In this document: positions 8,061-32,000 of the stretch, one piece after another | How the letters are laid out: every line of letters begins with the position of its first letter | Position numbering within the stretch: the stretch's first letter is position 1 | NCBI RefSeq assembly: GCF_000478275.1 | Contig: NZ_ASJB01000031.1 | Span: 85,850 to 117,849 of the forward strand | Direction of reading: 5' to 3' | Length of the DNA: 32,000 nucleotides | Origin: Amycolatopsis orientalis DSM 40040 = KCTC 9412 | Lineage (GTDB): Bacteria > Actinomycetota > Actinomycetes > Mycobacteriales > Pseudonocardiaceae | The notes under the pieces: generated by a model | Told to the model about the DNA's origin: nothing | What the model saw: only the letters and a program-made list of their open reading frames with translations | Database searches by the model: none | Program-made: the position numbers and the translations under genes

Positions 8061-8096
8061 TTAACGGGGCGATCGCGTGCACGGGTTTGCCTGCAT

Positions 8097-8351: not shown

Positions 8352-8392
8352 TCCAGGGCCTGTCCCGTGATCGGTGTTTCCGGCGTTGTTGT

Positions 8393-14583: not shown

Positions 14584-14673
14584 ACCCTGTCATGGCACAT
14601 CCTGCGAGGGCGAGCCCACCCCACTCCCATTTCTGCATAGGCGCTAGGTCGAGCGTCCGCATCAGCAGTGGGG

Positions 14674-15430
14674 CTAGCGGCTTTCGTTTCCCTCATTCCT
14701 CTGGTCAAGCCACTCGACCCGAGCGGCATCGTCGCGATCGTTGCCAGGAACAGCGTGCTCGGACTCCCAACACGCACGGACCGTGCGCATCAGCAGGCGT
14801 GAGCGCTCCGCTCCCAGGCCGAAGAGCCGCATCAGGCCTTTCCGCCGAGATCGGACGTTGGTGCTCCTCACGATGACGACGGTCCACCTCGATGGCTTTC
14901 ACCACGAGGTCGTCGTCGATCTTGGACAAGCTTGACCGCTTCGTTGGCTGCGGGGATGAGTCGATCAGCCGAGTCCCGTCCGTCCGAGGGAGCTTCGGGA
15001 GTTGTCGACGCGGGTGCGCTCGGCGACGATGCTGATACATCAGGTTGCTCGACAGACGGCGCCGTGGGCGCGAGCTCTCGAAGTAATGCTGGGCCGACGT
15101 CGGCCCAGCGATCAGCAGGAGTGGGCCGACGGCGTCGAACAGCGCTCGGCCGATCTCGCCCGCGATGAGCGGTTCGGCCACGTTCAGGGCCAGCGTGACG
15201 ACGCTCGAGACCAGCAGTAGTCGATGTGCTGGTCGGATCACCTCAGCGGAGGCGCCACGCAGCGACAGCTGCCGGATCGCGATCAGCAGCGCCAGGACCT
15301 GCCGAACCCGAACAGGAACGTGAGACCAACGGATGACCGTGACCAGCTGCAGAACAGCGTCACGCTCATGCGGAAACCACCAGCCTTGGCAGACACGAAG
15401 TAACTCTTCGCAACCAGCAACCAAGATCAA
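14674..15430 (-). pseudogene. DUF2637-family membrane protein, decayed paralogue of 19856-20623
   Basis: - Homologous to the intact copy, e.g. ALLIAIRQLSLRGAS.EVIRPA.RLLLVSS.VTLALNVAEPLIAGEIGRALFDAVGPLLLI.
- A 75-bp deletion between 8-bp repeats removes TM segments.
- Frameshifts lie near the start and in the TM1 region.
- The C-terminal homology (LMRLFGLGAERSRLLMRTVRACWESEH) lies in a different frame, ORF 14674-14871. Confidence 0.7.
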
Positions 15431-15462
15431 CTGGCGATATTCAGGCGACCTGAACCGTACCG
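14745..15462. repeat. direct repeat copy A (DUF2637 gene plus about 40 bp of 5' leader)
   Basis: Aligns by eye with 19896-20683. For example, the identical 39-mer gaacagcgctcggccgatctcgcccgcgatgagcggttc occurs at 15137-15175 and 20276-20314. The shared leader is caagatcaac.ggcgatattcaggcgacc. Confidence 0.75.
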
Positions 15463-15706
15463 CAATCGTGCGTCCGAGCCAGCCGGCGAGCAGCGCAGTT
15501 CAGGGCAGTTGCTTGAGGAAGTCCTCCTCGGCGACAAGATGATCCTCCTAGGAGAGCATCCCGAACGCGAGATCGTTCTACTTTTGGTTTCGACACTTTG
15601 TTAATGAAGTACGAACTGTTTACTAAGCCAGCAACACTCCGTCGTGACAAGGTTGTCACCGATAAATTGGTCGAACTGAGACCACCAGGCACTTAGCCTC
15701 AGCACG

Positions 15707-17062: not shown

Positions 17063-17108
17063 ATAAGGCACTGAACCAAGCGCTACCCTGGTAGTAGGTC
17101 TGCTTCGT

Positions 17109-17125
17109 TGCTGGGAAACCCAGCA
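17109..17125. terminator. short hairpin between convergent genes
   Basis: tgctggg-aaa-cccagca in the 100-bp gap between the stop codons at 17062 and 17163. Confidence 0.3.
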
Positions 17126-17162
17126 GGCCACCAAACCGGACCACGTCATCGCTGCTAGTGTT

Positions 17163-19448: not shown

Positions 19449-19855
19449 GCCGCGCGCTCCTCCGATCCTAGGGCGAGGCCCACAAGCTTACGTGCCGTTA
19501 ACGGCACGCCTGGATGGTAGGTCCGCGACTCGCGTCACGTCCGATAAAGGCACGCTAGACTCTCAGGTAGGCGTTCAATCGAACGTAGCCAGTGAACCCA
19601 CTTGGCGGGCGTCCCCTCATACAGCAGGTCGGTTTTGGTGAGTGCTGGCGCTGCGTGGCCGACTTGCGCACCCAGTGCCGCATTCTGCAGATAGCTTATT
19701 AGCAGAACTCGGAAGGGGCAGAGGAGCAGCTCGGAGGGCGTGCTCCGTGGCCATCGTGGCGACGGCAGCCGCGGCATTGAGGAGTTGGTTCAGCCGGAAC
19801 GCTACTGCAAACGGACTAACCGAGGCGGGGACAGTTAAGACGTTACTGGTGGTGC

Positions 19856-20623
19856 TCAACAACCGGCTCGACCATCGTAGTCGCCGTGAACCAAGTGCTC
19901 AGCCTCCCACTTCGCCCGTACCGTACGCATCAGCAGTCGTGAGCGCTCGGCTCCCAAACCGAAGTGTCGCATCAGGGCTTCTGCTGAGATCGGGCGTTGA
20001 TGTTCCTCGCGATGACAGCGGTCCACCTCGATGGCTCGCTCAACGAGGTCGTCGTCGAGCTTCGACAAGCTTGACCGCTTCGTCGGCGGCGGAGACGAGT
20101 CGATCAGCTCAGGTCGCGTGTCCGCGGGGACTTCAGGAGCCACTGGTACGTATGGACGCGGCGACGCCGACGGAGCGGCCGTTTCCTCTTCGGGCGGAGT
20201 CGTAGAGGCGAGCTCCCGGAGTAGTGCTGGGCCGACGTCGGCCCAGCCGATCAGCAGGAGCGGGCCGACTGCATCGAACAGCGCTCGGCCGATCTCGCCC
20301 GCGATGAGCGGTTCAGCCACGTTCAATGCCAGCGTGACGAAGCTCGAGACCAGCAGCAGGCGCCGCGCCGGTCGGATCACCTCGACAGAGGCCCCACGCA
20401 GCGACAGCTGCCGGATCGCGATCAGCAGTGCCAGGACCGACAAGTCCACGGCGGGCGCAACCAGCGGCGCGACCCAACCAGGCACACCGAGCCGGAGGCC
20501 GAAGGCCAGGACGTTGCCGAACCCGAACAAGAACGTCAGCCCCACGATCACCCCGACCATGACAGTGACCAGCTGCAGGACAGCATCACGCTCGACCGGA
20601 AACCCAATAGCTTTGGCAGACAC
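19856..20623 (-). CDS. DUF2637-family membrane protein (intact copy)
   Basis: - TM-rich N-terminal half: VMVGVIVGLTFLFGFGNVLAFGL, WVAPLVAPAVDLSVLALLIAI and LLLVSSFVTLALNVAEP.
- C-terminal DDDLVERAIEVDRCHREEHQRPISAEALMRHFGLGAERSRLLMRTVR.
- Likely GTG start at 20623 with AGGAG 7 nt upstream. The ORF is open to a TTG at 20713. Confidence 0.8.
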   Translation of the reverse strand: MSAKAIGFPVERDAVLQLVTVMVGVIVGLTFLFGFGNVLAFGLRLGVPGWVAPLVAPAVDLSVLALLIAIRQLSLRGASVEVIRPARRLLLVSSFVTLALNVAEPLIAGEIGRALFDAVGPLLLIGWADVGPALLRELASTTPPEEETAAPSASPRPYVPVAPEVPADTRPELIDSSPPPTKRSSLSKLDDDLVERAIEVDRCHREEHQRPISAEALMRHFGLGAERSRLLMRTVRAKWEAEHLVHGDYDGRAGC

Positions 20624-20683
20624 GAAGTAACTCCTCGTAACCAGCGTTTTCAAGATCAACCGGCGATATTCAGGCGACCGAAA
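19896..20683. repeat. direct repeat copy B (intact DUF2637 gene plus leader)
   Basis: See copy A. Copy B retains the 75 bp between the gccaggac repeats at 20430-20437 and 20505-20512. Copy A lacks this segment, with its junction at 15291-15298. Confidence 0.75.
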
Positions 20684-20824
20684 CGCGCCGAAACGCGTTC
20701 GAAGCCGCCCCAACGAGGAGGAACGAGGGACCGCATACCTGCGGAAACAGATGAAACGCCTGGTCAGGCACTGATTCGATCTTCCCTGACACGGAAGTGC
20801 TCGCCGCCGACTGTCGTCGTGCTC

Positions 20825-21290
20825 AAATACTACTGAGTGTTACGTTAGCCAGAGGCGTGTGGATAGTGAGCAGCTCGCCCCTCGGACACGCATTAACCCT
20901 ACGGGGGGCGGATGGTCACATCGACCGTCCGCTCTTTTGCGTTATAGACCATCTCCAGGCCGATCTCGCCGTAGAGCTCCTGAAGTCTCCCTGGGCTTCC
21001 AGTTCGGCTCTGCCGATCGACGCACGTCCTGCTCCATCCGGGTCGAGGTTGGTCGCCCTGGTTCGAGTGGCAAGACGGCGAGATGTCACGGCGCCGGTGA
21101 GTTCACTCCAACGGCCCAAGGCCGGTGCCTGATGAGAAGGTTCGCCTGCTGATCGATCACCTGGGGCACGCTCTCCACCGCGCCAGCGATGACCGCCGGG
21201 TCGAGGCCGTCAGTCTGGCCGACCTCGGCACCACGCTCACCGAGGCGGGCCATCCCGTCATCGTCCGCTGACTCTGGCGAATCGCGTTCG
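20825..21290 (-). pseudogene. possible 3' remnant of a large serine recombinase gene (frameshifted)
   Basis: The minus-strand frame reads ...GSPGRLQELYGEIGLEMVYNAKERTVDVTIRPP* with its stop at 20899-20901. This resembles the conserved C-terminal tail of actinobacterial recombinase-family proteins (L..L[FY]...[GD]L.[VM].[WY]N......V). Upstream sequence is readable only by switching frames. No catalytic domain is present. Confidence 0.35.
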
Positions 21291-22135
21291 TCATGCTGAC
21301 CGAGTTCGGGGACCAGCGCCCAGAACCTCTACGTCGCGCCCACCCATCTCGATGCAGCCGAACCGCCGTCCGACGGCACCACCGAGCGACGCCACGGTGT
21401 CAGCCTGCGTCCAGCGACTTAAGTTCACCGAACGCTACCGCGGCGCGACCTGGCTACTCGCGGAAGTCCTCTCCGGTGTCGGCGCCTCCGACGGTGTGAT
21501 CATCCGGGCGGTGAAGCTGGACCTCGGCCCAACCCGAGCCGCCGCCGAAGCCGGACGGAAACGGTGACGCGGCCGTACAGCGCCCTGCTCCGCCGGACGA
21601 GGCGGCGGAGCTGGCCCAGTTGGTTGCGGCCAGCGCCGCCGGCGGATGCCGAGATCGTCGACGACGCGACCGCCGGGCCGCTCGCGTATCTGCTGGAACT
21701 GCCGGCCGACGTAATCGGCGAGGAGAGACCGGAGTCGTGGCCACCACCGACTTCGCCGCCCGGATCAGCTGGGGTCCGAAATCACTGGGGAAGCGTTGCG
21801 GCGCTTGGAGCTTCCCGCGCCACGGCCATCCGGATCGGCGGGAGCAAGCATCCGGTGTCGGCGCAGCAGGCTGCCGCGATCGTGGAGCACAGCGAGGGTG
21901 GTTAGCCCGGTTGGGCACCGTGGGTAGCGTGGCAACCATGGGGGCCGGCGATCTGGAGGTCGATACCCATCAAGACCGCGTCCGAGAGCAACCGAGCCGC
22001 GGGATTCGCTCTGGTCCGGGAAATCTCGGTACGTCGCCGGGCCGGTGTGCCTGGCATCATCCGAATCGACCGTACGACCACGACCAACGCCGTGTCGTTC
22101 GCGTCCTTCGACTGAGCCATGCCTACAGCACTGGA

Positions 22136-22165
22136 CCTGGGTCGGCACACGTGTGCCGACCCAGG
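22136..22165 (-). terminator. 30-bp perfect palindrome 26 nt downstream of arsC
   Basis: cctgggtcggcacac/gtgtgccgacccagg is a perfect inverted repeat centred between 22150 and 22151. It is GC-rich and has no U-tract. Confidence 0.45.
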
Positions 22166-22190
22166 CCGTTCGCAGAAATCCGACCTGAAA

Positions 22191-22595
22191 CTAGACGTGT
22201 ACGGGACTGTCCACAAGGGACGCGAGAAGTTCGCGAACCCGACGGTCCATATCGTCCCGCAACGGCCGGATCCCGGTGACCCCTTCGGTTTCCGGATCGG
22301 GGACGACCCACTCGACGTAGCGCGTCCCCTCGGCGATCGGGTAGGTCTTGCACCCCATGGTGATCACGATGTCCGCCGCCGCGACGTCGGCGTGGGTGAC
22401 CTGACTCGGCACCTCCGCCGAAATGTCGACGCCCCATTCCGCCAAGGCTCCCGCCACCAGTGGATTGATCCGTTCCGCCGGGTCGCAGCCCGCCGACCGC
22501 ACGGTCACCCTGCCGAATCCGTGATGCTTCAGCAGGGCGGCCGCCATCTGCGACCGGCTCGCGTTGTGCACGCACACGAACAGGATTTGCGTCAT
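22191..22595 (-). CDS. arsC: arsenate reductase, low-molecular-weight phosphatase (LMWP) family
   Basis: ILFVCVHNASRSQMAA carries the CX5R(S) P-loop. VITMGC and the 134-aa length are typical of ArsC/LMWP proteins. Confidence 0.85.
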   Translation of the reverse strand: MTQILFVCVHNASRSQMAAALLKHHGFGRVTVRSAGCDPAERINPLVAGALAEWGVDISAEVPSQVTHADVAAADIVITMGCKTYPIAEGTRYVEWVVPDPETEGVTGIRPLRDDMDRRVRELLASLVDSPVHV

Positions 22596-22791
22596 CGTGC
22601 CGTCCCTCTTGTCGGTGTTGTGTACTCATACCGAGGTTACCCGTGAAAACGTCATCCATCCCGGGTGAGGAACAGAGTGGCAATCGAGGAGAACCTCACC
22701 ATTCCGTCCCACGCGCATCCACGGAGATGAGCTTGCTTTATAGGCGCTGCCACACTTTTCCGGTGCCCGGGAAAACAGGTGGGGGTTATCG

Positions 22792-24426
22792 ATGACCGAG
22801 GTCCGGCTCAGCGGCGCCGTGATGGCGCATCCCAGACGCAGGGAAGCGGCGGAGGAACTCGCGCGCCTCGACCCCGCCGGCGCGCTGCGCGTGGTGCTCG
22901 ACCCCGAGCCGGACGGGCCGCCGACGGCGTTGCGGACGGCGAGACTGGCGTGGAGCAGTGTTCCCGGCGACGCCACGCACTTCCTCGTGCTGCAGGACGA
23001 CGTCGAGCTCGCGGCCGGTTTCTTCGAGCACGCGAGGAAAGCGGCCGAACAGCTGCCTGACGACGCCATCGCCTTCTACGCCAACTGGAACTCCCGCAAT
23101 GGCGCGGCGGTGCGGATGGCCGCGGCGGCCGGTGCCGCGTGGGCGACCGCGGTCAACGAATACGCGCCGTGCGTCGCCATCATGCTGCCCGCGGCGGCCG
23201 CGCGTGGTTACGCGGCCTATTCCGACGCGCACTCGGAAGGCTGGCCGTGCGACGTGCTCATGTTCCGGTACCTGAAGGCCATCGGGGTGCCGATCCGCAT
23301 CGCCGTGCCCAACACCGTCCAGCATTCCGGCCTGCCCAGTGTGGCGGGCAATGACGCCCACGGACTCCGGCGTTCTTCGTGTTTCTCCGCTGTCGCGCCG
23401 TCCTTCGCCGGCGGCGCGATCGCCGAGCCCGAGGTGATCCCCTTCCACAAGCATGTCACGTCGGAATGCGCCGTGCGGGCAGGCGGCTACTGGGAGTATC
23501 TCGGAACAGAACGGCTCCTGCGGCGATCGGGGATTTCGCCGCAGGAGTGCAGAACCGAATTCGAGCGCGGCGAAGACCTTTCCGAGGGGGCTTGGCAGAC
23601 CTGGCTGACCGCGTTCGCCATGGGACTGTCCTCTGTGGACTCGCTCGGTGGCGACGCGCTCGATCTCGCCCTCGCGAGCATCGGCCCGGGCGGTCTCTGC
23701 GATCAGCACACCGCGTCCGAGATCGAGGCGATCACGGCTTCACACCACGAAGTCGCGATCAACGCCTTCGCCGCGGGACGTGCCCGGGCGGCCCTCCCCC
23801 GCCGTCCAGCCGCCCGGAGTGGTCTCCAGGTCGCGATCACCGGCCCCGGCGGCACGCTCACCGACCATCTGGCCGGGCTGCTGTCCGAATTCGGCCACGA
23901 GATCGTCGACGGCGAAAACCCGTCCGCCTCGACACGGCTCGTCCACCTCGGCGACGAGAACGATCCCGGCGACGTCTTCTGCGCCATCGTCGACACCGGT
24001 GCCCGTGAACACGTCCTGCGGTTCGCGACCCCGATCGGTCCGCACACCCCGGAGGATTCCTTGGTGGCGCGGTGGATCCGGCTCGCGTGGACGCGTAAGG
24101 CACTGCCGGTCGATCCCGATCGCGTCCACCAGTTCACCGACGTGCGAGACCTGGCGAGCGCGATCGACGCGGTGCTGACCGGCGGGCCGGTCTCGCCGGT
24201 GTACGACATCGCGACGGCCACGCTCACCGGGAACGAACTGGCGAAGATCGTGTGCGCCGCGGTTCGCGCGGTGCCGACGGAACAGGTCACCGAACCGTCG
24301 GAGACTCCCCTGCTGAAACTCGGGCTCGCCGCCGCGGAACTCGGCTGGACCGCCACCATCCCGGCGGACGAAGCCGTCCGGACCTTCGGGAAATGGCTGG
24401 CCTACGACACGGACTGGGACCGATGA
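22792..24426 (+). CDS. two-domain hypothetical protein: N-terminal GT-A-like nucleotide-sugar transferase region, C-terminal Rossmann-like (epimerase/dehydratase-like) region
   Basis: THFLVLQDDVEL is an acidic DxD-like motif after a beta-strand. LQVAITGPGGTLTDHLAGLL is a glycine-rich Rossmann-type turn. This is the first gene of the operon, and its TGA overlaps the next ATG (ATGA at 24423-24426). Both domain calls are tentative. Confidence 0.55.
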   Translation: MTEVRLSGAVMAHPRRREAAEELARLDPAGALRVVLDPEPDGPPTALRTARLAWSSVPGDATHFLVLQDDVELAAGFFEHARKAAEQLPDDAIAFYANWNSRNGAAVRMAAAAGAAWATAVNEYAPCVAIMLPAAAARGYAAYSDAHSEGWPCDVLMFRYLKAIGVPIRIAVPNTVQHSGLPSVAGNDAHGLRRSSCFSAVAPSFAGGAIAEPEVIPFHKHVTSECAVRAGGYWEYLGTERLLRRSGISPQECRTEFERGEDLSEGAWQTWLTAFAMGLSSVDSLGGDALDLALASIGPGGLCDQHTASEIEAITASHHEVAINAFAAGRARAALPRRPAARSGLQVAITGPGGTLTDHLAGLLSEFGHEIVDGENPSASTRLVHLGDENDPGDVFCAIVDTGAREHVLRFATPIGPHTPEDSLVARWIRLAWTRKALPVDPDRVHQFTDVRDLASAIDAVLTGGPVSPVYDIATATLTGNELAKIVCAAVRAVPTEQVTEPSETPLLKLGLAAAELGWTATIPADEAVRTFGKWLAYDTDWDR

Positions 24427-25403
24427 GGATCCTCGTCGCCGGTCCGGTCCCGGCGGCCAGCGACTACGGGAACGGCGTCACCGCGCGCCGCTGGGCGAGT
24501 CTGCTCGGGGGCCTCGGCCACGAGGTCCGGGTGGTCCAGGATTACGACGGCGGCACCTACGACCTGCTCATCGCCCTGCACGCCCGCAAGAGCGAGGCCG
24601 CGATCCGGGCCTTCCGCGCCGCCTGCCCTGCCGCCCCGATCGTGATCGCGCTGACCGGCACCGATCTCTATCCGGACCTGGTCAGCGGCGGGGTCGACCT
24701 GACCCTGCTCGAAGCCGCGGCCCGCGTCGTCGTTCTGCAGCCGCAAGGGGTTCTGCAGGTGCCGGAGGCGTTGCGGAGCCGGACCAGGGTGATCACCCAG
24801 TCCATGCCGCCGATCTCCGGCGAGGCGCCCGCTGGGGACCGGTTCGAAATCGCGTTCCTCGCGCACGCCAGGCCGGTCAAGGATCCGCTGCTGCTGAGCG
24901 AGGCGGTGCGGCTGCTGCCGCCGTCGTCCCGGATCACCGTGACCCACGTCGGCGGTGTCCGCGAGGACGACATCGGCGACCGGCTGCGTGCCGAGTCCGC
25001 CGGGAACCCGCGCTATTCGTGGCTCGGCGCGTCGCCGCGCCCCGAAGCGCTCGCCGTCCTCGCCCGCAGCCGTCTGCTGGTGCTCACGTCCCGGCACGAG
25101 GGCGGGGCGAACGTCGTCACCGAGGCGCTCGCCGCCGGCGTCCCGATCGTCTCCACCCGCATCCCGGGTTCGGTCGGGCTGCTCGGCGAGGACTATGCGG
25201 GCTATTTCCCCGTCGGTGACGCGGCCGCGCTGGCCGCCGTGCTCGACGCCGCCGAGCACGACCGCGACGGGCTCTACACGCAGTTGCGGCGGCAATGCGC
25301 CGCCCGCCGCGCTTCGGCGGATCCGGAGCGCGAAACCGAAGCCTGGAAGCGACTGCTCGCCGAAGCGGTCCCCGAGAAGGCCGGATACGAAGGAGTTCGA
25401 TGA
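24423..25403 (+). CDS. GT-B fold glycosyltransferase (group-1/GT4-like); N-terminal pattern reminiscent of the TIGR04348/SenB-type family
   Basis: - MRILVAGPVP..GNGVTARRWASLLGGLGHEV...ALHARKS...ALTGTDLY.
- C-terminal SRHEGGANVVTEALAAGVPIVSTRIPG, the E-x7-E-like GT1 motif.
- The ORF is open from 24252, but ATG 24423 gives an ATGA overlap with the upstream stop. Confidence 0.75.
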   Translation: MRILVAGPVPAASDYGNGVTARRWASLLGGLGHEVRVVQDYDGGTYDLLIALHARKSEAAIRAFRAACPAAPIVIALTGTDLYPDLVSGGVDLTLLEAAARVVVLQPQGVLQVPEALRSRTRVITQSMPPISGEAPAGDRFEIAFLAHARPVKDPLLLSEAVRLLPPSSRITVTHVGGVREDDIGDRLRAESAGNPRYSWLGASPRPEALAVLARSRLLVLTSRHEGGANVVTEALAAGVPIVSTRIPGSVGLLGEDYAGYFPVGDAAALAAVLDAAEHDRDGLYTQLRRQCAARRASADPERETEAWKRLLAEAVPEKAGYEGVR

Positions 25404-26752
25404 AACTCAGGAAGAGCGTTCCGAAGGTCGGCGGCGGCGGGGTGCACCGGGAGTTCACCGCCGAGCAGACCTACGCGCGGATCGAACCGCATCTGCGGCG
25501 CGCCGGGGTCACCCGGGTCGCGGAGATCACCTGGCTCGACCGGGTCGGCATCCCGGTCTACAACGCCATCGCGCCCCGCTCCAACGACATCATCTCGGTG
25601 TACAACGGCAAGGGCCTGACGAACATGGACGCCAGGACGTCCGCGGCGATGGAGGCGATCGAGCGGTTCTCCGCCGCGCTTCCGGTGCGGCCGCAGGTCA
25701 TCGCGTCCTACGAGGAGCTGGTCGCCGAAGGCCGCACGGTGCTGGACCCTCGCGAGAACAACGCGGAGCTTTCCGCGCACTACCGCGACGATCTCCCGAT
25801 CTCGTGGGTCGAGGCGTACGACCTGATCAACGAAGAGTCCATCCTGATCCCGCAGGCCTCCGCCGTCTACGGGCTGAAGTTCCACGAACCTCCCTGCTAC
25901 AAGGTGCTTTCCACCAACGGGCTGGCGTCGGGCAACAGTCTCGAAGAGGCCATCTGCCACGCGCTCACCGAACTCATCGAACGCGATTCGATGACCAACG
26001 CCGAACTCGTGAGCAGCCAGCTCGCGCAGGTGCTGGAGAAGGGCATCTTCGTCGATCCGCAGCCCGAGCACATCACTTCCCACCTGCGGGAACTGCATCC
26101 GCACGTCGACCTGGACTCGCTGCCACCGCTGGCGAAATCCCTCGTGGACAAGTTCCACGACGCCGGGCTGAAGATGCGGATCGTGCACATCACCTCGGAT
26201 CTGGAGATCCCGAGTTTCCTCGCCGCCACCTCCGAAGACCTCGGCCCGACGACGTCGCAGGGCCACGGCGGGTTCGGCACGCATCCCGACGCGAACGTCG
26301 CGCTCATCCGCGCCATCACCGAATGCGCGCAGGGCCGCGCGGTGGACATCCAGGCGATGCGCGAGGACATCCGGCTCCCGACCGAGAACGTGTCCAAGTA
26401 CCAGAACCACGTCCAGCGGTCGGCGACCATCGACAAGGGCGCGTGGGCCTGGCAGCCGATGCGCAAACAGGTCGCGTTCGCCGACATCCCGTCGTGGACC
26501 ACCGACGACGTGATGACCGACATCAAGCTCATCCTGGACCGGATCCGCGCCGCCGGTATCGAACGCGCGCTCGCCGTCGACCTCTCCCCGCCGGGGATCC
26601 CGGTCAGCGTGGTCCGGGTGATCGTGCCGCGGCTCGAATCGTGGGCCGTCGACCACTGCAAGATCGGCCCGCGAGGGGCGACGGTCTGGAACAACGCGCT
26701 GGTCGAGTTGTCGGCCCGTAAGCGCGCCGCCGAACTTTCCAAGCCCGCCTAG
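25400..26752 (+). CDS. YcaO-domain protein (ATP-dependent backbone amide activation)
   Basis: GIPVYNAI, SVYNGKG, STNGLASGNSLEEAICHALTELIERD and GGFGTHPDANVALIRAITECAQ are YcaO hallmarks. ATG 25400 overlaps the upstream TGA (ATGA). Confidence 0.9.
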   Translation: MKLRKSVPKVGGGGVHREFTAEQTYARIEPHLRRAGVTRVAEITWLDRVGIPVYNAIAPRSNDIISVYNGKGLTNMDARTSAAMEAIERFSAALPVRPQVIASYEELVAEGRTVLDPRENNAELSAHYRDDLPISWVEAYDLINEESILIPQASAVYGLKFHEPPCYKVLSTNGLASGNSLEEAICHALTELIERDSMTNAELVSSQLAQVLEKGIFVDPQPEHITSHLRELHPHVDLDSLPPLAKSLVDKFHDAGLKMRIVHITSDLEIPSFLAATSEDLGPTTSQGHGGFGTHPDANVALIRAITECAQGRAVDIQAMREDIRLPTENVSKYQNHVQRSATIDKGAWAWQPMRKQVAFADIPSWTTDDVMTDIKLILDRIRAAGIERALAVDLSPPGIPVSVVRVIVPRLESWAVDHCKIGPRGATVWNNALVELSARKRAAELSKPA

Positions 26753-26762
26753 GAGATCTCTC

Positions 26763-27458
26763 ATGCGCGCAGTGGTTTTCATCGGCCCGAGCATCGACCG
26801 GGAAGCGGCGTCCGCCGAACTCGACGTCGAGTTCCTGCCGCCGGTCAAACGCGGCGACCTCGCCGAACTGCTGGCCCGGCCGGAGCCGCCGGAGGCCATC
26901 GGCATCGTGGACGGCCGGTTCCTGCAGAGCCTGTGCATCTCGCCGAAGGAGGTGCTCGAAGCGATGGACCGCGGCGTCACGATGTTCGGTTCGTCGAGTA
27001 TGGGTGCCTTGCGGGCGGCGGAATGCTCGCCGTTCGGCATGGTCGGCATCGGCAAGATCTACGAGGAGTACTTCTCCGGGCGGATCGACGCCGACGACGA
27101 GGTCGCCGTCACCTACGACGAAGAGAACCTGTCGGCGCTGTCCGAACCGATGGTCAACATGCGGTTCGCCATCGCCGCCGGGATCGAGCAGGGCGCCTTC
27201 GCCCCGGAAACGGGTGAGCGGTTCCTCGAGATCGCGAAGGAGCTGTACTTCCCGCAGCGCGTCAACCGGACCGTGCTCATGTTGCTGCGCAAGGAGATCG
27301 GCGAGGACGAGTACGTCAGGATCGCCGCATTCTTCGCCGGCGGGGCACCCGACACGAAACGCGAGGACGCGCTGCTCCTGCTCGCGGCGATGCGGGAGTT
27401 CCTCGACCCGGCAGGAAAACCGCAGATCAAATCCGTCGAACACCGAGGTGCGCTGTGA
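26763..27458 (+). CDS. TfuA-like protein (YcaO partner for thioamidation)
   Basis: VVFIGPS, PPVKRGDL, IGIVDGRF, SPKEVLEAMDRGVTMFGSSSMGALRAAE and GMVGIGKIY match the TfuA pattern. AGGAG Shine-Dalgarno sequence. It starts 10 nt after the YcaO stop. Confidence 0.9.
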   Translation: MRAVVFIGPSIDREAASAELDVEFLPPVKRGDLAELLARPEPPEAIGIVDGRFLQSLCISPKEVLEAMDRGVTMFGSSSMGALRAAECSPFGMVGIGKIYEEYFSGRIDADDEVAVTYDEENLSALSEPMVNMRFAIAAGIEQGAFAPETGERFLEIAKELYFPQRVNRTVLMLLRKEIGEDEYVRIAAFFAGGAPDTKREDALLLLAAMREFLDPAGKPQIKSVEHRGAL

Positions 27459-27607
27459 CCGACCCCATCGACCCGTCGCTCGCCCCGCTGGCCGGGTTCA
27501 CCCCCGAGCAGCTGGAGCGGTTCCTGGAGGCCGTGCGGACGTCGTCCGACGGCGTCCAGGGCACGCTGGAATCCCTGACCATGACGATCATGACCTCCAT
27601 CGAATGA
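27455..27607 (+). CDS. unannotated 50-aa ORF: candidate RiPP precursor peptide MTDPIDPSLAPLAGFTPEQLERFLEAVRTSSDGVQGTLESLTMTIMTSIE
   Basis: - GTG 27455 overlaps the TfuA TGA (GTGA).
- Its own TGA overlaps the MFS ATG (ATGA at 27604-27607).
- A GAGG sequence lies 5-9 nt upstream.
- 48 of 50 codons end in G/C.
- It is not in the supplied track because it is under 60 aa. Confidence 0.65.
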   Translation: MTDPIDPSLAPLAGFTPEQLERFLEAVRTSSDGVQGTLESLTMTIMTSIE

Positions 27608-28983
27608 CCGCCGCGCCGCTGACGGAGGAGGACGTCATCCCGGCGAAGGCGGGCATCTTCTCCAAGGAGTACCGGGCGAGCACCATCGGCTTCGCGTCGG
27701 TGATGTTCCTCGAAGGGTTCGCCGCGCTGGCGCTGGTCACCACCCTGCCGGTGGCGGTCGGCCAGCTCGACGGGCTCACCGTCTACGCGCTGGCGCTGGG
27801 CGGGTTCGTCACGATGAGCCTGTTCGGCAGCGTGCTGGCGGGCGAGATCGCCGACAAACGCGGTCCCCGGCCGCTGCTGGTGCTCGGGCTGGGCCTGTTC
27901 CTGGCCGGGCTGCTGCTCGCCGGGACCGCGACGACGGTGTGGCAGCTGATCGCCGGACGCTGCGTGCAGGGTTTCGCGAGCAGCGTCGTGGTCGTCGGCC
28001 TCAACGTCACCATCGCGCAGTCGTATCCGTCGAAGCTGCGGCCGAAGGCGCTCTCGCTGATGAGCACCTGCTGGATCGTGCCGTCGATGATCGGCCCGGC
28101 GATCGCCGGGACCGTCACCGAACTGCTGTCGTGGCGCTGGGTGTTCTTCGGCCTCGCCATCCTGGTCTCGGTCGCCGCGCTGATCCCGCTCGGTTTCCTG
28201 CGGCGGCTCAGCCCGGTGGCCGACGCGGAACGGTCGACCCCGCCGGGGCTCGTCCGGGCCGCGGCCATCGTCGCGGTGGCCGCCGGGATCCTGCACTTCG
28301 GCGCCTCGGGGCTGGATCCGGTGCACCTCCTGTTCGGGCTCGCCGGCGTGATCGCGCTGGTGATCAGCGTGCCCCGGCTGCTGCCTGCCGGGACACTGCG
28401 CGCGGTCAGGGGCATTCCCGCGGCGATCCTGTTGCGCGGGCTGGCCTCCGGTATCTATTTCGCGCTGGAGTCCTACATCCCGCTGATGCTGATCAACCAG
28501 CGGCAGATCTCGGTCACCGCCGCCGGGATCTCGTTCACCGGGGCCACGCTGCTGTGGGCGGGCGCGGCGTGGCTGCAGGGCCATCCCTGGTCCGAGGTGC
28601 CCCGGCACAGACTGGTGCTGCTCGGGTCCGCGGTGATCGCCGGGTCCAGCCTGATCGCGATCTTCGGCGTCCTGGGGTTCGCGCCGCCGATGACCGCCAG
28701 CGTCGCGCTGATCGTCGCCGGGTTCGGCATGGGGCTCGTGCTGCCGAGCCTCACCGTGCTCGCGTTCGACCACTGCCCGCCGGAGGACCAGGGCCGCTAC
28801 TCGGCCGCCATGCAGGTCTCCCAGGGGCTCGGCAGCGTCGTGATGATCGGCGCGGCGGGCGCGCTCTTCAACGTCGGTACCGCCGTCGGCTATTCCGGCG
28901 GCCTCGTCTACGGGGTGGTTTTCACCTTCGTGGCACTCATCGCGCTCCCGGCGTGCCTGTTGGCGCTGAGGACCCGCATCTAG
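27604..28983 (+). CDS. MFS transporter (about 12 TM, probable exporter)
   Basis: Multiple hydrophobic helices. LAGEIADKRGPRPLLVLG resembles the MFS loop 2-3 motif G-x-x-x-D-[RK]-x-G-R-[RK]. The in-frame ORF is open from 27004, but protein-like sequence begins at M 27604. Confidence 0.85.
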   Translation: MTAAPLTEEDVIPAKAGIFSKEYRASTIGFASVMFLEGFAALALVTTLPVAVGQLDGLTVYALALGGFVTMSLFGSVLAGEIADKRGPRPLLVLGLGLFLAGLLLAGTATTVWQLIAGRCVQGFASSVVVVGLNVTIAQSYPSKLRPKALSLMSTCWIVPSMIGPAIAGTVTELLSWRWVFFGLAILVSVAALIPLGFLRRLSPVADAERSTPPGLVRAAAIVAVAAGILHFGASGLDPVHLLFGLAGVIALVISVPRLLPAGTLRAVRGIPAAILLRGLASGIYFALESYIPLMLINQRQISVTAAGISFTGATLLWAGAAWLQGHPWSEVPRHRLVLLGSAVIAGSSLIAIFGVLGFAPPMTASVALIVAGFGMGLVLPSLTVLAFDHCPPEDQGRYSAAMQVSQGLGSVVMIGAAGALFNVGTAVGYSGGLVYGVVFTFVALIALPACLLALRTRI

Positions 28984-28992
28984 GAGGCACTC

Positions 28993-30252
28993 GTGCAGAA
29001 GGATCTCGCGGTCATCGGCCTGGGGTACGTGGGGCTGCCGTTGGCCAGGGAAGCCATCCGTGCCGGGCTCACCGTCACGGGGCTGGACCAGAACGAGCGC
29101 GTCGTCGCCGCGCTCAACACCGGACTGTCGCATGTGGACGACATCCCGGACGCCGACGTGGCGACGATGGTGGAGGAGGGATTCACCGCGACCACCGACG
29201 AAGGCGTGCTGGCCTCGGCCGACGTCATCGTCATCTGCGTGCCGACGCCGCTGGCGTCCGACGGCGGACCGGATCTCGGCGCGGTGAAGGCCGCGGCCGA
29301 GGCGGTCAGCCGTCACCTGAAGCCGGGAACGCTGGTGGTACTGGAATCGACCACCTATCCCGGGACCACCGAAGAGGTCGTCGCCCCGATACTGGAGTGG
29401 TCGGGGCTGCGCGCGGGGAAGGACTTCTGCCTGGCGTTCTCGCCGGAGCGGGTCGACCCCGGCAACGCCGTCTACGGCATCCGCAACACCCCGAAGGTCG
29501 TCGGCGGCCTGACGTCGTCGTGCGCCGCCGCGGTGGCGGGATTCTACGGCCGGTTCGTCGACGACGTCGTCCCCGCCAAGGGAACGCGCGAGGCCGAAAT
29601 GGCGAAGCTGCTGGAGAACACCTACCGGCACGTGAACATCGCGCTGGTGAACGAGATGGCGGTGTTCTGCCACGAACTCGGCATCGACCTGTGGGACGTC
29701 ATCTCGTGCGCCGCCACGAAACCCTTCGGTTTCCAGTCGTTCCGGCCGGGTCCGGGTGTCGGCGGGCACTGCATCCCGATCGACCCGAACTACCTGTCGT
29801 ACAAGGTGCGCACGCTCGGCTACCCGTTCCGGTTCGTCGAACTGGCGCAGGAGATCAACTCGCGCATGCCGCGTTACGTCGTCGAACGGGCGCAGGCCAT
29901 GCTCAACGAATCCGGCCGGGCGCTGCGCGGTGCTCGGGTGCTCCTGCTCGGCGTGACCTACAAACCCGACATCGCCGACCAGCGGGAGTCACCCGCGCAA
30001 CCGGTCGCGGCGCGGTTGCGGGCGCTGGGCGCCGACGTCGTCTACCACGATCCGCACGTCACGGACTGGCGCGTGCACGGCGACGCGATCCCGCGCGTGA
30101 CCGACCTGGCCGGGGAACTCGCGTCGGCGGATCTGACGATCCTGCTGCAGAAGCACACCGCCTACGACGTCGACGTCCTCGCCGCCGGCGTGCGCCTGCT
30201 GCTGGACACCAGGGGTGCCGTTCCCCACGACGCTCACGTCGTCGCCCTCTGA
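28993..30252 (+). CDS. nucleotide-sugar dehydrogenase (UDP-glucose/GDP-mannose dehydrogenase family)
   Basis: LAVIGLGYVGLPLA is the N-terminal NAD-binding GxGxxG motif. GPGVGGHCIPIDP carries the catalytic Cys. VTYKPDIADQRESPA is also present. The GTG start has AGGAGG 6 nt upstream. Confidence 0.9.
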   Translation: MQKDLAVIGLGYVGLPLAREAIRAGLTVTGLDQNERVVAALNTGLSHVDDIPDADVATMVEEGFTATTDEGVLASADVIVICVPTPLASDGGPDLGAVKAAAEAVSRHLKPGTLVVLESTTYPGTTEEVVAPILEWSGLRAGKDFCLAFSPERVDPGNAVYGIRNTPKVVGGLTSSCAAAVAGFYGRFVDDVVPAKGTREAEMAKLLENTYRHVNIALVNEMAVFCHELGIDLWDVISCAATKPFGFQSFRPGPGVGGHCIPIDPNYLSYKVRTLGYPFRFVELAQEINSRMPRYVVERAQAMLNESGRALRGARVLLLGVTYKPDIADQRESPAQPVAARLRALGADVVYHDPHVTDWRVHGDAIPRVTDLAGELASADLTILLQKHTAYDVDVLAAGVRLLLDTRGAVPHDAHVVAL

Positions 30253-30258
30253 CACCCT

Positions 30259-30311
30259 CGCGTTCAGTCCTCTGGATGCGGTTTACCCCCGCATTTAGAG
30301 GACTGAACGCG
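30259..30311. terminator. bidirectional terminator hairpin between convergent genes
   Basis: A 15-bp perfect stem pairs cgcgttcagtcctct (30259-30273) with agaggactgaacgcg (30297-30311). There is an inner atgcgg/ccgcat stem. It sits between the stops at 30252 and 30320. Confidence 0.7.
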
Positions 30312-30319
30312 TATCGGGT

Positions 30320-32000
30320 CTAGAGCACCAGCCGGACGCGGTAGGCCCTGAGCCAGTCGTTGAGCTGCAGGGTGGTCTCCAGCGCGGGCCGGGTCAGCCG
30401 TCCCGCGGGGAACTCGTCGTTCAGCAGCGGCGAGAGTGGTTCGTCCTTCGCGAGGATCAGCTTCCGCAGCCGGTCACGCAGGATCCGGTCGTAGGAATCG
30501 TCCTCAATGGACGGATACGGGGTCTTGGCACGGTCCAGCACCTCGGCGGGGAGCAGCTCCTTGCCGACCGCGCGCAACAGGCTCTTCTCCCGGCCGTCGA
30601 AGTTCTTCATCGACCACGGGACGTTGAAGGTGTACTCGACCAGCCGATGGTCGGTGAACGGCACCCGCACCTCCAGCCCGGCGGCCATGCTCATCCGGTC
30701 CTTGCGGTCGAACAGCACCTGCGCGTGCCGGGTCAGCCCGAGGTAGGTGACCTCGCGCATCCGGGCCTCCAGCGGATCCTCACCGGCCACAGTGGACAGT
30801 TCGGCGACGGCGGAGTCATGGCTGTCGCGTTCGTACTCACGCAGCCCGAGTTTCGTCATCAGGTCCGGCGCGAACAGCAGGTCGAGGCCTTCGTGGCGGC
30901 TTCGTCCCGAATGGACCCACGGGAAGGTGCCCGACCAGACCGCCTCGGGATTCCGGTACCAGCGGTAACCACCGAAGACCTCATCGCCGCATTCTCCGGA
31001 CAACGCCACCGTCGACCGCTCCCGGACCAGCCGGAACAGCTCGTGCAGCGACGCGTGTTCGTCACCCTTGGCGATCGGCAGGTCGTACGCGGTCAGCACG
31101 GCCGCTTTCACCGGCGGCGCGAGAAGATCCACGGTGGTGTGCAGGATCTCCTCGTACCGCGCGCCCACGTGGTCCGCGACCAGGCGCGCGTGCACATGGT
31201 CGAGGTTGTCGCCCGGCTGGTCGGTCACCTTGACCGAATAGGACCGGACGTCGGAGGTCCTGGCCGCGAGCGCGGTCAGCGTGCTGGAGTCGAGTCCGCC
31301 CGACAGCAGTGTGCACAGTGGCACGTCCGCGACCAGCTGGCGGGTGACGGTGTCCTCCAGCAGCTCCCGGACCCTGGCGACCGTGGTGGCGAGGTCGTCG
31401 GGATGCTCCCGGACCTCCAGCGACCAGTATTTCCGAAGGTCGAGCCCATCGCGGCGGACTCGCAGCGTATGCCCGGGCGGCAGCTCGCGCATCCCGCGGA
31501 AGACGGCGTGCCCGGGGTTCTTCGCCACCGAGAGCAGATCCCGCAGGCCGTCCGCGTCGAGGACGCGTTCGGCGAGCGGGTTGGCGAGGATCGCCTTCGG
31601 CTCCGAACCGAAGAGGACACCGTCGGCGGTCGGGTAGTAGAAGAGCGGCTTGACGCCCATGCGGTCGCGGACCAGCAGCAGCTCGTCGCCGTCCCAGATC
31701 GCGAACGCGTACATCCCGTTGAGCCGGTCGACGAACGCGTCGCCCCATTCGAGGTAGGCGCGCAGGACGACCTCGGTGTCACTGCGGGTGTCGAACCGAT
31801 GGCCGCGGGCGGTGAGCTCCGCGCGCAGCTCACGGAAGTTGTAGACCTCACCGCTGTAGGTGAGCACGGCCGTACCCGCCGTCATCGGCTGGCGGCCGCC
31901 GTCGAGGTCGATGATGGACAGCCGCCGGTGCCCCAGCGCCGCGTGCGGGGAGAGCCAGATCCCGCCGGCGTCGGGCCCCCGCTTCGCCATGGTGTCCGTC
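30320..32000 (-). CDS. asnB: asparagine synthase (glutamine-hydrolysing), N-terminus beyond the window edge
   Basis: RGPDAGGIW..LGHRRLSIIDL..GRQPM and YNFRELRAEL are Ntn amidotransferase motifs. LLSGGLDSS is the PP-loop. The frame is still open at position 32000. Confidence 0.85.
   Translation of the reverse strand, partial: TDTMAKRGPDAGGIWLSPHAALGHRRLSIIDLDGGRQPMTAGTAVLTYSGEVYNFRELRAELTARGHRFDTRSDTEVVLRAYLEWGDAFVDRLNGMYAFAIWDGDELLLVRDRMGVKPLFYYPTADGVLFGSEPKAILANPLAERVLDADGLRDLLSVAKNPGHAVFRGMRELPPGHTLRVRRDGLDLRKYWSLEVREHPDDLATTVARVRELLEDTVTRQLVADVPLCTLLSGGLDSSTLTALAARTSDVRSYSVKVTDQPGDNLDHVHARLVADHVGARYEEILHTTVDLLAPPVKAAVLTAYDLPIAKGDEHASLHELFRLVRERSTVALSGECGDEVFGGYRWYRNPEAVWSGTFPWVHSGRSRHEGLDLLFAPDLMTKLGLREYERDSHDSAVAELSTVAGEDPLEARMREVTYLGLTRHAQVLFDRKDRMSMAAGLEVRVPFTDHRLVEYTFNVPWSMKNFDGREKSLLRAVGKELLPAEVLDRAKTPYPSIEDDSYDRILRDRLRKLILAKDEPLSPLLNDEFPAGRLTRPALETTLQLNDWLRAYRVRLVL

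Follow-up and report, generated by a model that had tools for sequence, protein, structure and literature searches.

We analysed a window of 32,000 nucleotides from Amycolatopsis orientalis DSM 40040 in which seven genes, g1 to g7, lie together on the plus strand (Table 1). The set, spanning 22792-30252, is a predicted RiPP-type biosynthetic operon, known here from its genes, that is conserved among actinomycetes and appears to be sister to the thioamitide clusters. The successive junctions are ATGA, ATGA, a 10-nt gap, GTGA, ATGA and a 9-nt gap, and g7 is followed by a hairpin with a perfect 15-bp stem (23 pairs and -43 kcal/mol by RNAfold). Genes, junctions and stem are exactly as the first-pass annotation described them; the hairpin has no T-tract, and for this reason the terminator scan made no call there. 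It is likely a bidirectional terminator serving both g7 and the amidotransferase gene that converges on it. The reported lack of thioamitide tailoring enzymes was borne out as well: the seven proteins gave no match to a dehydratase, decarboxylase, methyltransferase, azoline dehydrogenase, E1-like protein or protease. ORFs scanned across the 3 kb upstream of g1 gave no Pfam matches.

Table 1. Genes and other features of the operon and its 3' neighbour (positions in the window)
Feature	Position	Strand	Description
g1	22792..24426	+	544 aa; N-terminal GT-A-fold glycosyltransferase domain and degenerate SDR-like domain (predicted)
g2	24423..25403	+	GT4/GT-B, SenB-family (TIGR04348)
g3	25400..26752	+	TfuA-associated YcaO; PF02624, E 1e-70
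g4	26763..27458	+	TfuA partner; PF07812, E 3e-40
g5	27455..27607	+	50-aa precursor peptide; leader, residues 1-36
Predicted core peptide TLESLTMTIMTSIE	27563..27604	+	g5 residues 37-50
g6	27604..28983	+	MFS_1 efflux-type transporter; PF07690, E 9e-43; accessory
g7	28993..30252	+	UDP-HexNAc-type nucleotide-sugar 6-dehydrogenase; TIGR03026, 430 bits; accessory
Hairpin	30259..30311	.	Between convergent g7 and amidotransferase gene
Amidotransferase gene	30320..32000	-	Asparagine-synthase-like, glutamine-dependent; 5' end beyond window end

The g3 protein, predicted to activate backbone amides in an ATP-dependent manner, shares 60% identity with the YcaO of the thiovarsolin producer Streptomyces varsoviensis, 50% with that of the thioviridamide producer S. 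olivoviridis, and 65-66% with YcaOs adjoining thioamitide-type precursors; its nearest relatives outside its own clade adjoin such precursors with a THC end. Its partner g4 scores 214 bits against NF033432, under the cut-off of 235. The g5 ORF, also called by an independent gene caller, carries the thioamitide-like leader motif SPEQLERFLE...VQG and matches NF033415 weakly (19.6 bits). We infer the leader/core boundary from thioamitide precursors, which gives a putative 14-residue core, TLESLTMTIMTSIE, with six Ser/Thr and no Cys. The leader varies, but in all four genera and in the metagenome contigs the core hardly changes (consensus T[LM][ED]SLT[MVT]T[IV]MTSIE), and comparison with other Amycolatopsis loci finds 4-6 synonymous and 0 non-synonymous changes in the core codons. 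On this codon evidence, the core is under purifying selection. The YcaO-TfuA peptide cluster proposed at the outset is genuine, and its precursor is conserved.

Eighteen clusters were compared: 16 genome loci (L002-L015, L041 and L042), from 12 Amycolatopsis species, one Streptomyces, two Actinacidiphila and one Actinoplanes, and two near-identical metagenome contigs (L084/L085). The genes for g2, YcaO, TfuA and g5 form a constant set present in all 18, and g2 is the sole tailoring gene of which this is true; g1 is present in 17, a methyltransferase standing in its place in L007. With that one exception, the order g1-g2-YcaO-TfuA-g5 is conserved across the 16 species genomes, from four genera, and the two metagenome contigs; the other genera keep the tight coupling along with the order, and synteny with them begins exactly at 22790. 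Partners of the g1 and g2 type were not found beside any YcaO of 66% identity or less. Some Amycolatopsis clusters are minimal, with five genes and neither the MFS nor the sugar-oxidation genes. A phosphatase-family gene is present in the non-Amycolatopsis clusters. The gene list and order of the first-pass annotation stand, while its seven-gene unit divides into the constant g2-g5, the nearly constant g1 and the accessory g6 and g7, and had omitted the amidotransferase gene. Its expectation that the sugar genes travel with YcaO-TfuA holds across genera for the two glycosyltransferases and needs revision for the dehydrogenase, which about half of the clusters lack and which co-varies with the amidotransferase.

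The RiPPER paper (Santos-Aberturas et al. 2019; PMC6511847) notes such clusters as unlike those of thioviridamide and uncharacterised, and describes four peptides from non-thioviridamide-like clusters that join the thioviridamide precursor network; the g5-family peptides, present in its dataset, are probably those four. Our g5 is identical to the peptide listed there as WP_037305773_2 of A. orientalis DSM 40040. The architecture had been put forward as undescribed; it is indeed uncharacterised, but the cluster family and the exact peptide were already listed in 2019. What is new here is the SenB identity of g2.

The g2 protein passes TIGR04348, the NCBI SenB equivalog model (342 bits; cut-off 300), matches the V. 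paradoxus SenB structures at E 3e-57, and shares 59-62% identity with SenBs adjoining SenA and SelD in true selenoneine clusters, a distance equal to that among the true SenBs themselves. The acceptor pocket and catalytic lysine of SenB have been defined by mutagenesis (PMC10891094), and all of these residues are kept in g2; conserved positions are N20, T23, H58, T83, T85, Q131, R155, V157, K158, E231 and E239. The narrow SenB pocket is shaped for small anions, selenophosphate for example (PMC10891094), and its full conservation in g2 argues against direct transfer to a peptide thioamide. The YcaO-linked copies form a single clade within the actinobacterial SenB radiation, with a clade-specific Asp-Tyr substitution at the equivalents of SenB 17-18, beside the G19-N20 loop. 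Neither SelD, SenA nor another seleno- or thiophosphate source was found within 10 kb of any cluster. Membership of this family predicts that g2 bonds C1 of a sugar to S or Se, and its closeness to SenB, the selenium-sugar synthase, makes sulfur or selenium, and not oxygen, the probable atom of attachment for the sugar. The GT-B had at first been taken for a generic peptide O-glycosyltransferase, an assignment that does not hold up; since g2 is a SenB-family enzyme with its selenophosphate pocket intact, glycosylation of the Ser/Thr tail by g2 itself is unlikely, and plain O-glycosylation is not the best-supported reading.

The second glycosyltransferase, g1, has no Pfam matches. Its AlphaFold models (pLDDT 88.9 and 89.8) place a GT-A fold in the N-terminal 250 aa and an SDR-like fold in the C-terminal part, in agreement with the GT-A-like/Rossmann fusion called earlier. 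Foldseek matched residues 1-250 to GnT-I, POMGnT1, COLGALT1, LH3 and Mimivirus R655 (TM-scores 0.45-0.53), and its best matches for the GT-A fold include the protein O-glycan enzymes POMGnT1, C1GalT1, COLGALT1 and Fringe; the C-terminal part matched UDP-xylose synthase, RmlB and GalE. Residues D69-D70 and H178 show no variation. The SDR-like domain is missing the YxxxK motif, with its catalytic segment deleted in Amycolatopsis, and the model suggests that it is degenerate and non-catalytic.

The accessory genes provide a putative sugar-oxidation and export module. Of the 18 clusters, 12 carry an orthologue of g6, whose best subfamily matches are drug-efflux transporters. Among solved structures, g7 comes closest to Cap5O, a UDP-ManNAc dehydrogenase, and to a GalNAcA dehydrogenase, rather than to UDP-glucose dehydrogenase. 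It never occurs without the amidotransferase, the two being both there or both missing; in L014, L015, L042 and L084 the amidotransferase gene lies on the same strand directly 3' of g7, and the gene at 30320 belongs with g7. Its product has GATase_7 and Asn_synthase matches and scores 456 bits against TIGR01536, in a match that begins at model position 27. Because g7 is always paired with this asparagine-synthase-like gene, the pair suggests a uronamide sugar. Uronamides of O-antigens and capsules are formed with a UDP-HexNAc 6-dehydrogenase and an asparagine-synthase-like amidotransferase, e.g., WbpO/WbpS in Pseudomonas and WbtH in Francisella. A HexNAc-type 6-dehydrogenase and a glutamine-dependent Asn-synthase homologue, with their activity predicted, are strictly paired here too; the setting is not a polysaccharide locus, as it is there, but either a peptide cluster or a small cassette with PhyH and MFS genes. 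In that cassette g1, the dehydrogenase, the MFS and the amidotransferase accompany a PhyH dioxygenase, with neither YcaO nor peptide (the MFS of the YcaO-free cassette in L081 shares 43% identity with g6), and their acceptor therefore need not be a peptide. The glycosyltransferases g1 and g2 are linked to the peptide operon; part of its sugar content, g1, g6, g7 and the amidotransferase, is a portable module that exists elsewhere without YcaO.

Comparison with characterised systems sets the cluster apart from each of them. The thioamitides (thioviridamide, thioalbamide, thiostreptamide S4; tva-type) share with it a YcaO-TfuA pair adjoining the precursor, a leader motif (SPEELQxFLEE...GVQG) and the YcaO identities given above. 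They differ in that the g5 core has no C-terminal His-Cys motif, their core is variable and ours invariant, and the operon has a SenB-type GT-B and a GT-A fusion instead of the phosphotransferase/lyase, decarboxylase and methyltransferase. In thioamitide-type loci a PhyH-type gene follows TfuA; this window and its cluster relatives gave no PhyH match. The thiovarsolin (var) locus of S. varsoviensis (L029), an actinomycete RiPP cluster from the RiPPER genome-mining study, also has a TfuA-associated YcaO, but no homologue of g1, g2, g5, g6 or g7, and its repetitive precursor peptide bears no relation to g5. The selenoneine (senABC) and ovoselenol (ovs) pathways share SenB, whereas g2 has no nearby SelD/SenC or SenA/OvsA-type iron enzyme and is partnered instead by YcaO, TfuA and a peptide. 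Glycosylated RiPPs include the glycocins (sublancin, thurandacin) and NAI-112, and to these can be added the RiPP-derived cofactor mycofactocin, which is itself glycosylated and whose C-terminal core is invariant, like that of g5. Glycocins S-glycosylate Cys, a residue absent from the g5 core, and to our knowledge none of these systems has a SenB-family enzyme or a YcaO-TfuA pair. As here, they join a ribosomal peptide to dedicated glycosyltransferases (in part from work cited in PMC8120280).

From the gene content, conservation and family memberships observed, we infer a series of chemical steps, and we give the pathway as a whole a probability of roughly 0.45. The thioamitide-like leader of g5 would be bound by YcaO and TfuA, which would convert at least one backbone amide of the invariant core to a thioamide with ATP and a sulfide donor. 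With UDP-HexNAc, g2 would form a SenB-like carbon-chalcogen (S or Se) glycosidic bond, so that sulfur or selenium, and not Ser/Thr oxygen, would tie the sugar to the pathway; the fusion protein g1 would put on a further sugar. In about half of the clusters, the 6-dehydrogenase and the glutamine amidotransferase would turn that sugar donor into a uronic acid and then a uronamide, and the MFS pump would export the product. Several points count against this pathway: the narrow, fully conserved SenB pocket does not suit a peptide thioamide as acceptor, antibiotic RiPPs usually show the opposite of the invariant core and variable leader seen here, the cluster encodes no protease, the 10 kb around each cluster hold no SelD or seleno-/thiophosphate source, and the YcaO-free, peptide-free cassette exists.

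In the first-pass annotation, ordinary glycosyltransferases would O-glycosylate the Ser/Thr-rich C-terminus of a thioamidated peptide, perhaps with a uronic acid made by g7, ahead of MFS export. A genuine YcaO-TfuA cluster with conserved glycosyltransferases is indeed what we find, and the six core Ser/Thr and the likeness of g1 to protein O-glycan enzymes suit such a product. The intact pocket and K158 of the SenB-family g2 speak against a Ser/Thr O-linkage made by g2, half of the clusters do without g7, and the g1 family also occurs in peptide-free cassettes, so that we regard this account as unlikely. More doubtful still is a role for the sugar as a mere carrier, as in selenoneine synthesis: g2 would make a 1-seleno- or 1-thio-sugar from seleno- or thiophosphate made elsewhere in the genome, YcaO would use it as the nucleophile on an activated amide, and the resulting Se/S-glycosyl imidate would give a selenoamide or thioamide. 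TfuA already gives a sulfide route, we know of no YcaO that uses an external thiol or selenol, SelD is absent near all clusters whereas true sen clusters carry it, and a mere leaving-group sugar needs neither uronamide tailoring nor a second glycosyltransferase. For this role speak the full conservation of the SenB pocket, the position of g2 as the tailoring gene most tightly tied to YcaO-TfuA, and the fact that in each of the two known SenB pathways the selenosugar passes its chalcogen to the enzyme that follows, together with the ability of SenB to take thiophosphate, 10-20 times less well than selenophosphate (PMC10702425).

The invariant peptide might instead be a reusable or sacrificial scaffold for YcaO/TfuA sulfur handling and not the product, an idea that we hold to be very improbable. 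A second YcaO turnover on the thioamide could, for example, release thiophosphate, and g2, g1, g7 and the amidotransferase would together build the exported product, a small metabolite of the thiosugar type. Such a scheme would give the SenB-type g2 a phospho-chalcogenide substrate without SelD, and it is consistent with the invariant core beside a variable leader, an MFS rather than ABC peptide-type exporter, the absence of a protease, the peptide-free g1-dehydrogenase-MFS-amidotransferase cassette, and the phosphatase-family gene of non-Amycolatopsis clusters. Its chemistry is, however, purely speculative; we know of no YcaO that releases thiophosphate, the g5 leader shows clear homology to those of true RiPP products, and the minimal five-gene Amycolatopsis clusters have no MFS or sugar-oxidation genes. 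Least credible, to the point of near dismissal, is a chance juxtaposition in which the YcaO-TfuA-precursor trio sits inside a cell-envelope or other sugar locus unrelated to the peptide, an outcome that the first-pass annotation had allowed for. The portable, YcaO-free cassette of g1, g6, g7 and amidotransferase and the dispensability of g6/g7 in many Amycolatopsis species are in its favor; against it, g2 (18/18) and g1 (17/18) stay linked across four genera in a fixed order with start/stop codon overlap with YcaO, the YcaO-linked SenB-type genes are a clade of their own, and no such genes adjoin YcaOs of 66% identity or less.

We favor a thioamidated peptide whose pathway would take up its sugar through g2. 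The significance of the operon lies in this SenB-type sugar enzyme within a thioamide-peptide operon, which points to a sulfur- or selenium-linked sugar.

Among thioamide RiPP clusters, this one is a variant that is conserved but uncharacterised. It consists of a GT-A/SDR-like fusion (g1), a SenB-family GT-B glycosyltransferase (g2), YcaO (g3), TfuA (g4), a 50-aa precursor peptide (g5), an MFS transporter (g6), and a nucleotide-sugar dehydrogenase (g7). ORF listing and translation bear out the seven plus-strand genes at the positions proposed by the first-pass annotation, along with their junctions: ATGA, ATGA, a 10-nt gap, GTGA, ATGA, and a 9-nt gap. The YcaO-domain gene and the stand-alone TfuA gene are adjacent, with 10 nt between them, and the start of g5 overlaps the tfuA stop codon; an independent gene caller, applied to the same DNA in the public assembly, also predicts the 50-aa ORF. 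At the terminator proposed at 30259-30311, the 15-bp stem is perfect, and the inverted repeat folds into a hairpin of 23 pairs (-43 kcal/mol), but a T-tract is absent and a consensus terminator scan misses it for this reason; the same scan of the operon interior returned nothing meaningful. Feature coordinates are collected in the table.

Coordinates of cluster, defence, and comparison features (window positions unless a locus is named; L-numbers denote compared loci)
Feature	Locus	Position	Strand	Assignment
g2	window	24423-25403	+	GT4-type GT-B (Pfam, NCBIfam)
g3	window	25400-26752	+	YcaO, PF02624, E 1e-70
g4	window	26763-27458	+	TfuA, PF07812, E 3e-40
g6	window	27604-28983	+	MFS (Pfam, NCBIfam)
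g7	window	28993-30252	+	nucleotide-sugar dehydrogenase (Pfam, NCBIfam)
Amidotransferase	window	30320-32000, runs off window end	- (convergent)	GATase + Asn_synthase domains
GajA	window	10864-12606	-	PADLOC model, E 3e-169
GajB	window	9125-11014	-	PADLOC model, E 7e-159
PF13350 gene	L013	13910-14614		
PF13350 gene	L015	16715-17467		
PF13350 gene	L084	14584 to contig end		
PhyH-g1-dehydrogenase-MFS	L081, Streptantibioticus cattleyicolor	8152-13866		dehydrogenase 72% to g7, MFS 43% to g6
g1-amidotransferase-MFS-dehydrogenase-PhyH	L082, Streptomyces venezuelae	9001-17055		
PhyH-g1-amidotransferase-MFS-dehydrogenase	L088, Actinokineospora globicatena	7213-14337		

In tblastx alignments to non-Amycolatopsis loci, shared sequence starts exactly at 22790 and continues to the window end. 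The ~3 kb 5' of the operon (19640-22790) hold only overlapping ORFs, without a Pfam or PADLOC match. These ORFs at 19.6-22.8 kb were rejected as cluster genes: they lack family matches, and nothing 5' of 22790 aligns to the clusters of other genera. The first 20 kb of the window resembles a defence island. On the minus strand, 9125-12606 encodes a complete Gabija anti-phage system (PADLOC models), and further genes at 2010-4229, 13288-14139, and 15707-19448 contribute an NB-ARC/TPR STAND protein, a PDC-M19B candidate, an nSTAND3 NTPase (PDC-S73), and a 451-aa ORF without matches; the last sits in a dip in GC content (0.53 at 16-17 kb vs ~0.64 elsewhere).

With a YcaO alignment as query, one scan across ~185,000 species genomes yielded 79 loci, against which the window proteins were run by tblastn. 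The nearest YcaO relatives, 94-97% identical, are all from Amycolatopsis. The order g1-g2-YcaO-TfuA-g5 is kept in 12 Amycolatopsis species, in Streptomyces sp. NPDC015346, Actinoplanes sp. NPDC049681, Actinacidiphila bryophytorum, and A. cocklensis, and in two near-identical metagenome contigs that retain the tight gene coupling. Within the 79-locus set, the partners are always present where YcaO is at least 72% identical, and tblastn found them at none of the loci where it is at most 66% identical; the latter group includes the Streptomyces varsoviensis thiovarsolin locus (60%) and several loci with classical THC-ending thioamitide precursors. Across the 18 clusters compared (16 genome loci and the two contigs), g2, YcaO, TfuA, and g5 are universal, g1 occurs in 17, and an orthologous MFS gene occurs in 12. 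The genes and layout of the seven-gene unit are real, but g6 and g7 are accessory, with g7 in only half of the clusters. The conservation of g1 and g2 in several genera led us to reject chance juxtaposition with a sugar locus for these two; for g6, g7, and the neighboring amidotransferase gene, we keep that explanation in part.

In Amycolatopsis sp. NPDC051071 (L007, 7573-8310), g1 is missing and a SAM-dependent methyltransferase lies in its place 5' of the SenB-type gene, a natural variant that could reveal the contribution of g1. Amycolatopsis species without g6, g7, and the amidotransferase carry a glyoxalase gene and an HTH-cupin regulator 3' of g5. Several Amycolatopsis species carry a minimal five-gene version whose small size would allow it to be expressed directly in a heterologous host.

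All 18 clusters carry the precursor g5, and codon comparisons show purifying selection on its core. The final 14 residues are near-invariant, T[LM][ED]SLT[MVT]T[IV]MTSIE, while the leader has diverged to ~50% identity; in comparisons among Amycolatopsis species, the final 17 codons show 4-6 synonymous and 0 non-synonymous differences. Homologues share the leader motif SPE(Q/E)L(E/Q)xFL(E/D) and the junction (V/I)(Q/L/V)(G/A)T, both of which resemble thioamitide precursors of neighboring YcaO clades; by analogy with thioamitides, we place the probable leader/core boundary after VQG. The resemblance has limits. On the thioviridamide-family precursor model NF033415, g5 reaches 19.6 bits, below the cut-off of 40, and whereas thioamitide precursors end in His-Cys, its core is Cys-free and closes with SIE. 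Thioamitide clusters also carry Tva-type tailoring enzymes; here, in agreement with the first-pass annotation, no Tva-type phosphotransferase/lyase, flavin decarboxylase, or methyltransferase was detected in the seven genes or the scanned flanking ORFs. Glycocins, in turn, need a Cys acceptor and a SunS-type GT2, whereas g5 contains no Cys anywhere and g1 has no Pfam GT2 match. A HMMER search of 1.8 billion representative proteins recovered only five small-peptide clusters of the g5 family, the query's own included. Two large proteins outside the window, P0362 (3506 aa) and P0366 (3810 aa), match the leader motif (residues 8-27) several times; they were rejected as relatives, since their Pfam matches are scattered fragments, and the hits are probably a repeat or low-complexity artefact.

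What sets this cluster apart is g2. It scores 342 bits on TIGR04348 ("selenoneine biosynthesis selenosugar synthase SenB"; cut-off 300), with its orthologues in the other clusters at 329-338 bits and true SenBs at 342-362 bits, and it matches the Variovorax paradoxus SenB crystal structures over its full length (E 3e-57). Its identity to homologues in Haloechinothrix aidingensis and Actinomadura alba is 59-62%; these two true SenBs, which lie inside textbook sen clusters with SenA (DinB_2 + FGE-sulfatase) and SelD, are only 61% identical to each other. Mutagenesis of SenB has assigned selenophosphate binding to N20, H58, R61, T83, T85, and R155, sugar contacts to N20, T23, Q131, and E231, a UDP contact to E239, and catalysis to K158 (PMC10891094). 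These residues are kept in g2 and its YcaO-linked orthologues with only two deviations, R61K and H235N; position 61 is Lys or Arg, both deviations are shared with true actinobacterial SenBs, and the EGGA(H/N)V motif is present. By this comparison, the SenB active site is intact in g2. In a neighbor-joining tree of 122 sequences, built without bootstrap, the YcaO-linked enzymes form one clade within the actinobacterial SenB radiation. Only five alignment columns set the clade apart; two of these are an Asp-Tyr at SenB positions 17-18 (g2 residues 14-15, window 24462-24467), directly before the G19-N20 substrate loop, where other SenBs have (Pro/Val)-(His/Asn).

To our knowledge, SenB is the sole enzyme family so far known to form selenium-sugar bonds, and it has been seen only together with SelD and iron-dependent C-Se synthases. 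SenB pathways associate with SelD/SenC and SenA/OvsA-type genes, but here no such association occurs within 10 kb: tblastn with SelD and SenA queries from two sen loci (L086, L087) found neither in the window nor within 10 kb on either side of any YcaO locus. We rejected a true sen cluster because neither SelD nor SenA lies nearby. Several of the g2-type genes are already annotated as SenB by NCBI's pipeline; the pathway that the label "selenoneine biosynthesis SenB" assigns to them is doubtful.

The accessory genes point to a modified sugar. The g7 protein scores 430 bits on TIGR03026 (cut-off 190), contains all three UDPG_MGDP_dh Pfam domains, and is nearest to UDP-ManNAc and GalNAcA dehydrogenases rather than to UDP-glucose dehydrogenase. 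It occurs exclusively where the asparagine-synthase-like amidotransferase is also found. The amidotransferase scores 456 bits on TIGR01536 (cut-off 267); its first ~26 codons, catalytic Cys included, lie beyond the window end, and the ATG listed at 31990 is not the true start, because the TIGR01536 match begins at model position 27. A lasso-type cyclase is unlikely, given the full glutaminase domain and a score of 184 bits on the lasso-cyclase model against a cut-off of 525. The strict pairing of g7 with a full-length glutamine amidotransferase suggests a route familiar from O-antigen pathways, in which a UDP-HexNAc is oxidised to the uronic acid and this is then amidated to a uronamide. In the metagenome contigs and in Actinacidiphila and Actinoplanes, g7 is followed on the same strand by the amidotransferase gene and then by a PF13350 gene, producing a nine-gene operon. 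This tyrosine-phosphatase-family gene ends the cluster in every non-Amycolatopsis version, and no copy was found at the Amycolatopsis loci; the protein it encodes might act on a phospho-intermediate. Since g2 retains the C-5' hydroxymethyl contacts N20 and T23 with or without g7, the oxidised sugar would be used by g1 and not by g2.

An AlphaFold model of g1 (pLDDT 88.9) supports the proposed fusion of a GT-A-like and a Rossmann domain. Residues 1-250 adopt a GT-A fold in the model, with Mimivirus R655, GnT-I, POMGnT1, COLGALT1, and LH3 as best matches (TM-scores 0.45-0.53), and an invariant Asp-Asp (69-70) and His178 would fit a metal-dependent GT-A enzyme. The C-terminal part of the model resembles UDP-xylose synthase, RmlB, and GalE. 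We rejected an active epimerase or dehydratase because Tyr-x-x-x-Lys is absent and the Amycolatopsis versions have lost the whole catalytic segment; we read the domain as a nucleotide-sugar-binding pseudo-enzyme domain. The ~195 g1 homologues in a protein search far exceed the YcaO clusters. Elsewhere, homologues sit in small operons without YcaO, TfuA, or a SenB-type gene, and further ones lie within other sugar-tailoring clusters. Three versions of one such conserved operon, with PhyH, are listed in the table; they contain no YcaO and no obvious peptide, and the Streptantibioticus cattleyicolor version is missing the Asn-synthase-like amidotransferase. The window cluster therefore looks like a fusion of a SenB-YcaO-TfuA-precursor cassette with a portable GT-A/dehydrogenase/amidotransferase/MFS sugar cassette.

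In our main reading, YcaO and TfuA would thioamidate the g5 core, g2 would make a sugar C1-S or C1-Se bond, g1 would attach a second sugar, sometimes a uronamide, and the MFS protein would export the product. A bolder reading, to which we give roughly a one-in-five chance, is that a YcaO-TfuA peptide pathway has taken in an enzyme derived from SenB, which would couple chalcogen-sugar chemistry to backbone amide activation. The first-pass annotation had proposed a thioamidated peptide glycosylated on its Ser/Thr-rich C-terminus. O-glycosylation of this kind could still be carried out by g1 but is at odds with g2, for which the SenB score, the residue comparison, and the neighbor-joining tree all argue against an ordinary GT4 peptide glycosyltransferase as the leading reading. 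The narrow anion pocket of g2, judged from its conserved residues, favours seleno- or thiophosphate over a peptide as direct nucleophile, which keeps two further models alive: one in which a chalcogen-sugar made by g2 is the donor for YcaO, and one that gives the peptide no role beyond that of a scaffold. As for the choice of chalcogen, SenB can also use thiophosphate, albeit 10-20 times more poorly than selenophosphate (PMC10702425).

Many YcaO-TfuA clusters have emerged from genome mining, and very few of their products are characterised. The g5 peptide is identical to WP_037305773_2 of Amycolatopsis orientalis DSM 40040, which appears in supplementary data alongside near-identical peptides of A. 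alba and A. regifaucium (Santos-Aberturas et al. 2019, PMC6511847). Where that study treats its thioviridamide precursor network, it places four peptides there whose clusters are "extremely different" from the thioviridamide ones, and the family is left uncharacterised (PMC6511847). The architecture, which the first-pass annotation called unlike described thioamide clusters, is uncharacterised, but the family itself had already been listed. A literature search found no later paper with the core sequence, with TfuA and A. orientalis, or with YcaO and SenB; a glycosyltransferase family 4 gene in PMC8120280 was discounted as a prior report, as it belongs to other clusters. The family has therefore been noticed before and not studied. 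None of the searchable papers describes the link to SenB, the accessory pair of uronamide genes, or the portable cassette around g1.

In four actinomycete genera, one clade of SenB enzymes is firmly tied to YcaO, TfuA, and an invariant peptide. The cluster offers a concrete, testable way into unexplored sulfur or selenium chemistry of ribosomal peptides, or else to a small thiol or selenol metabolite that would be new. If the bolder reading is true, the outcome may be the first ribosomal peptide in which a thioimidate or selenoimidate of the backbone bears a sugar through an S- or Se-glycosyl linkage, the first natural peptide containing a selenoamide, or a YcaO/peptide system that provides thiophosphate for a thiosugar metabolite. 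Any of the three would be a new enzymatic logic for the YcaO and SenB families alike.
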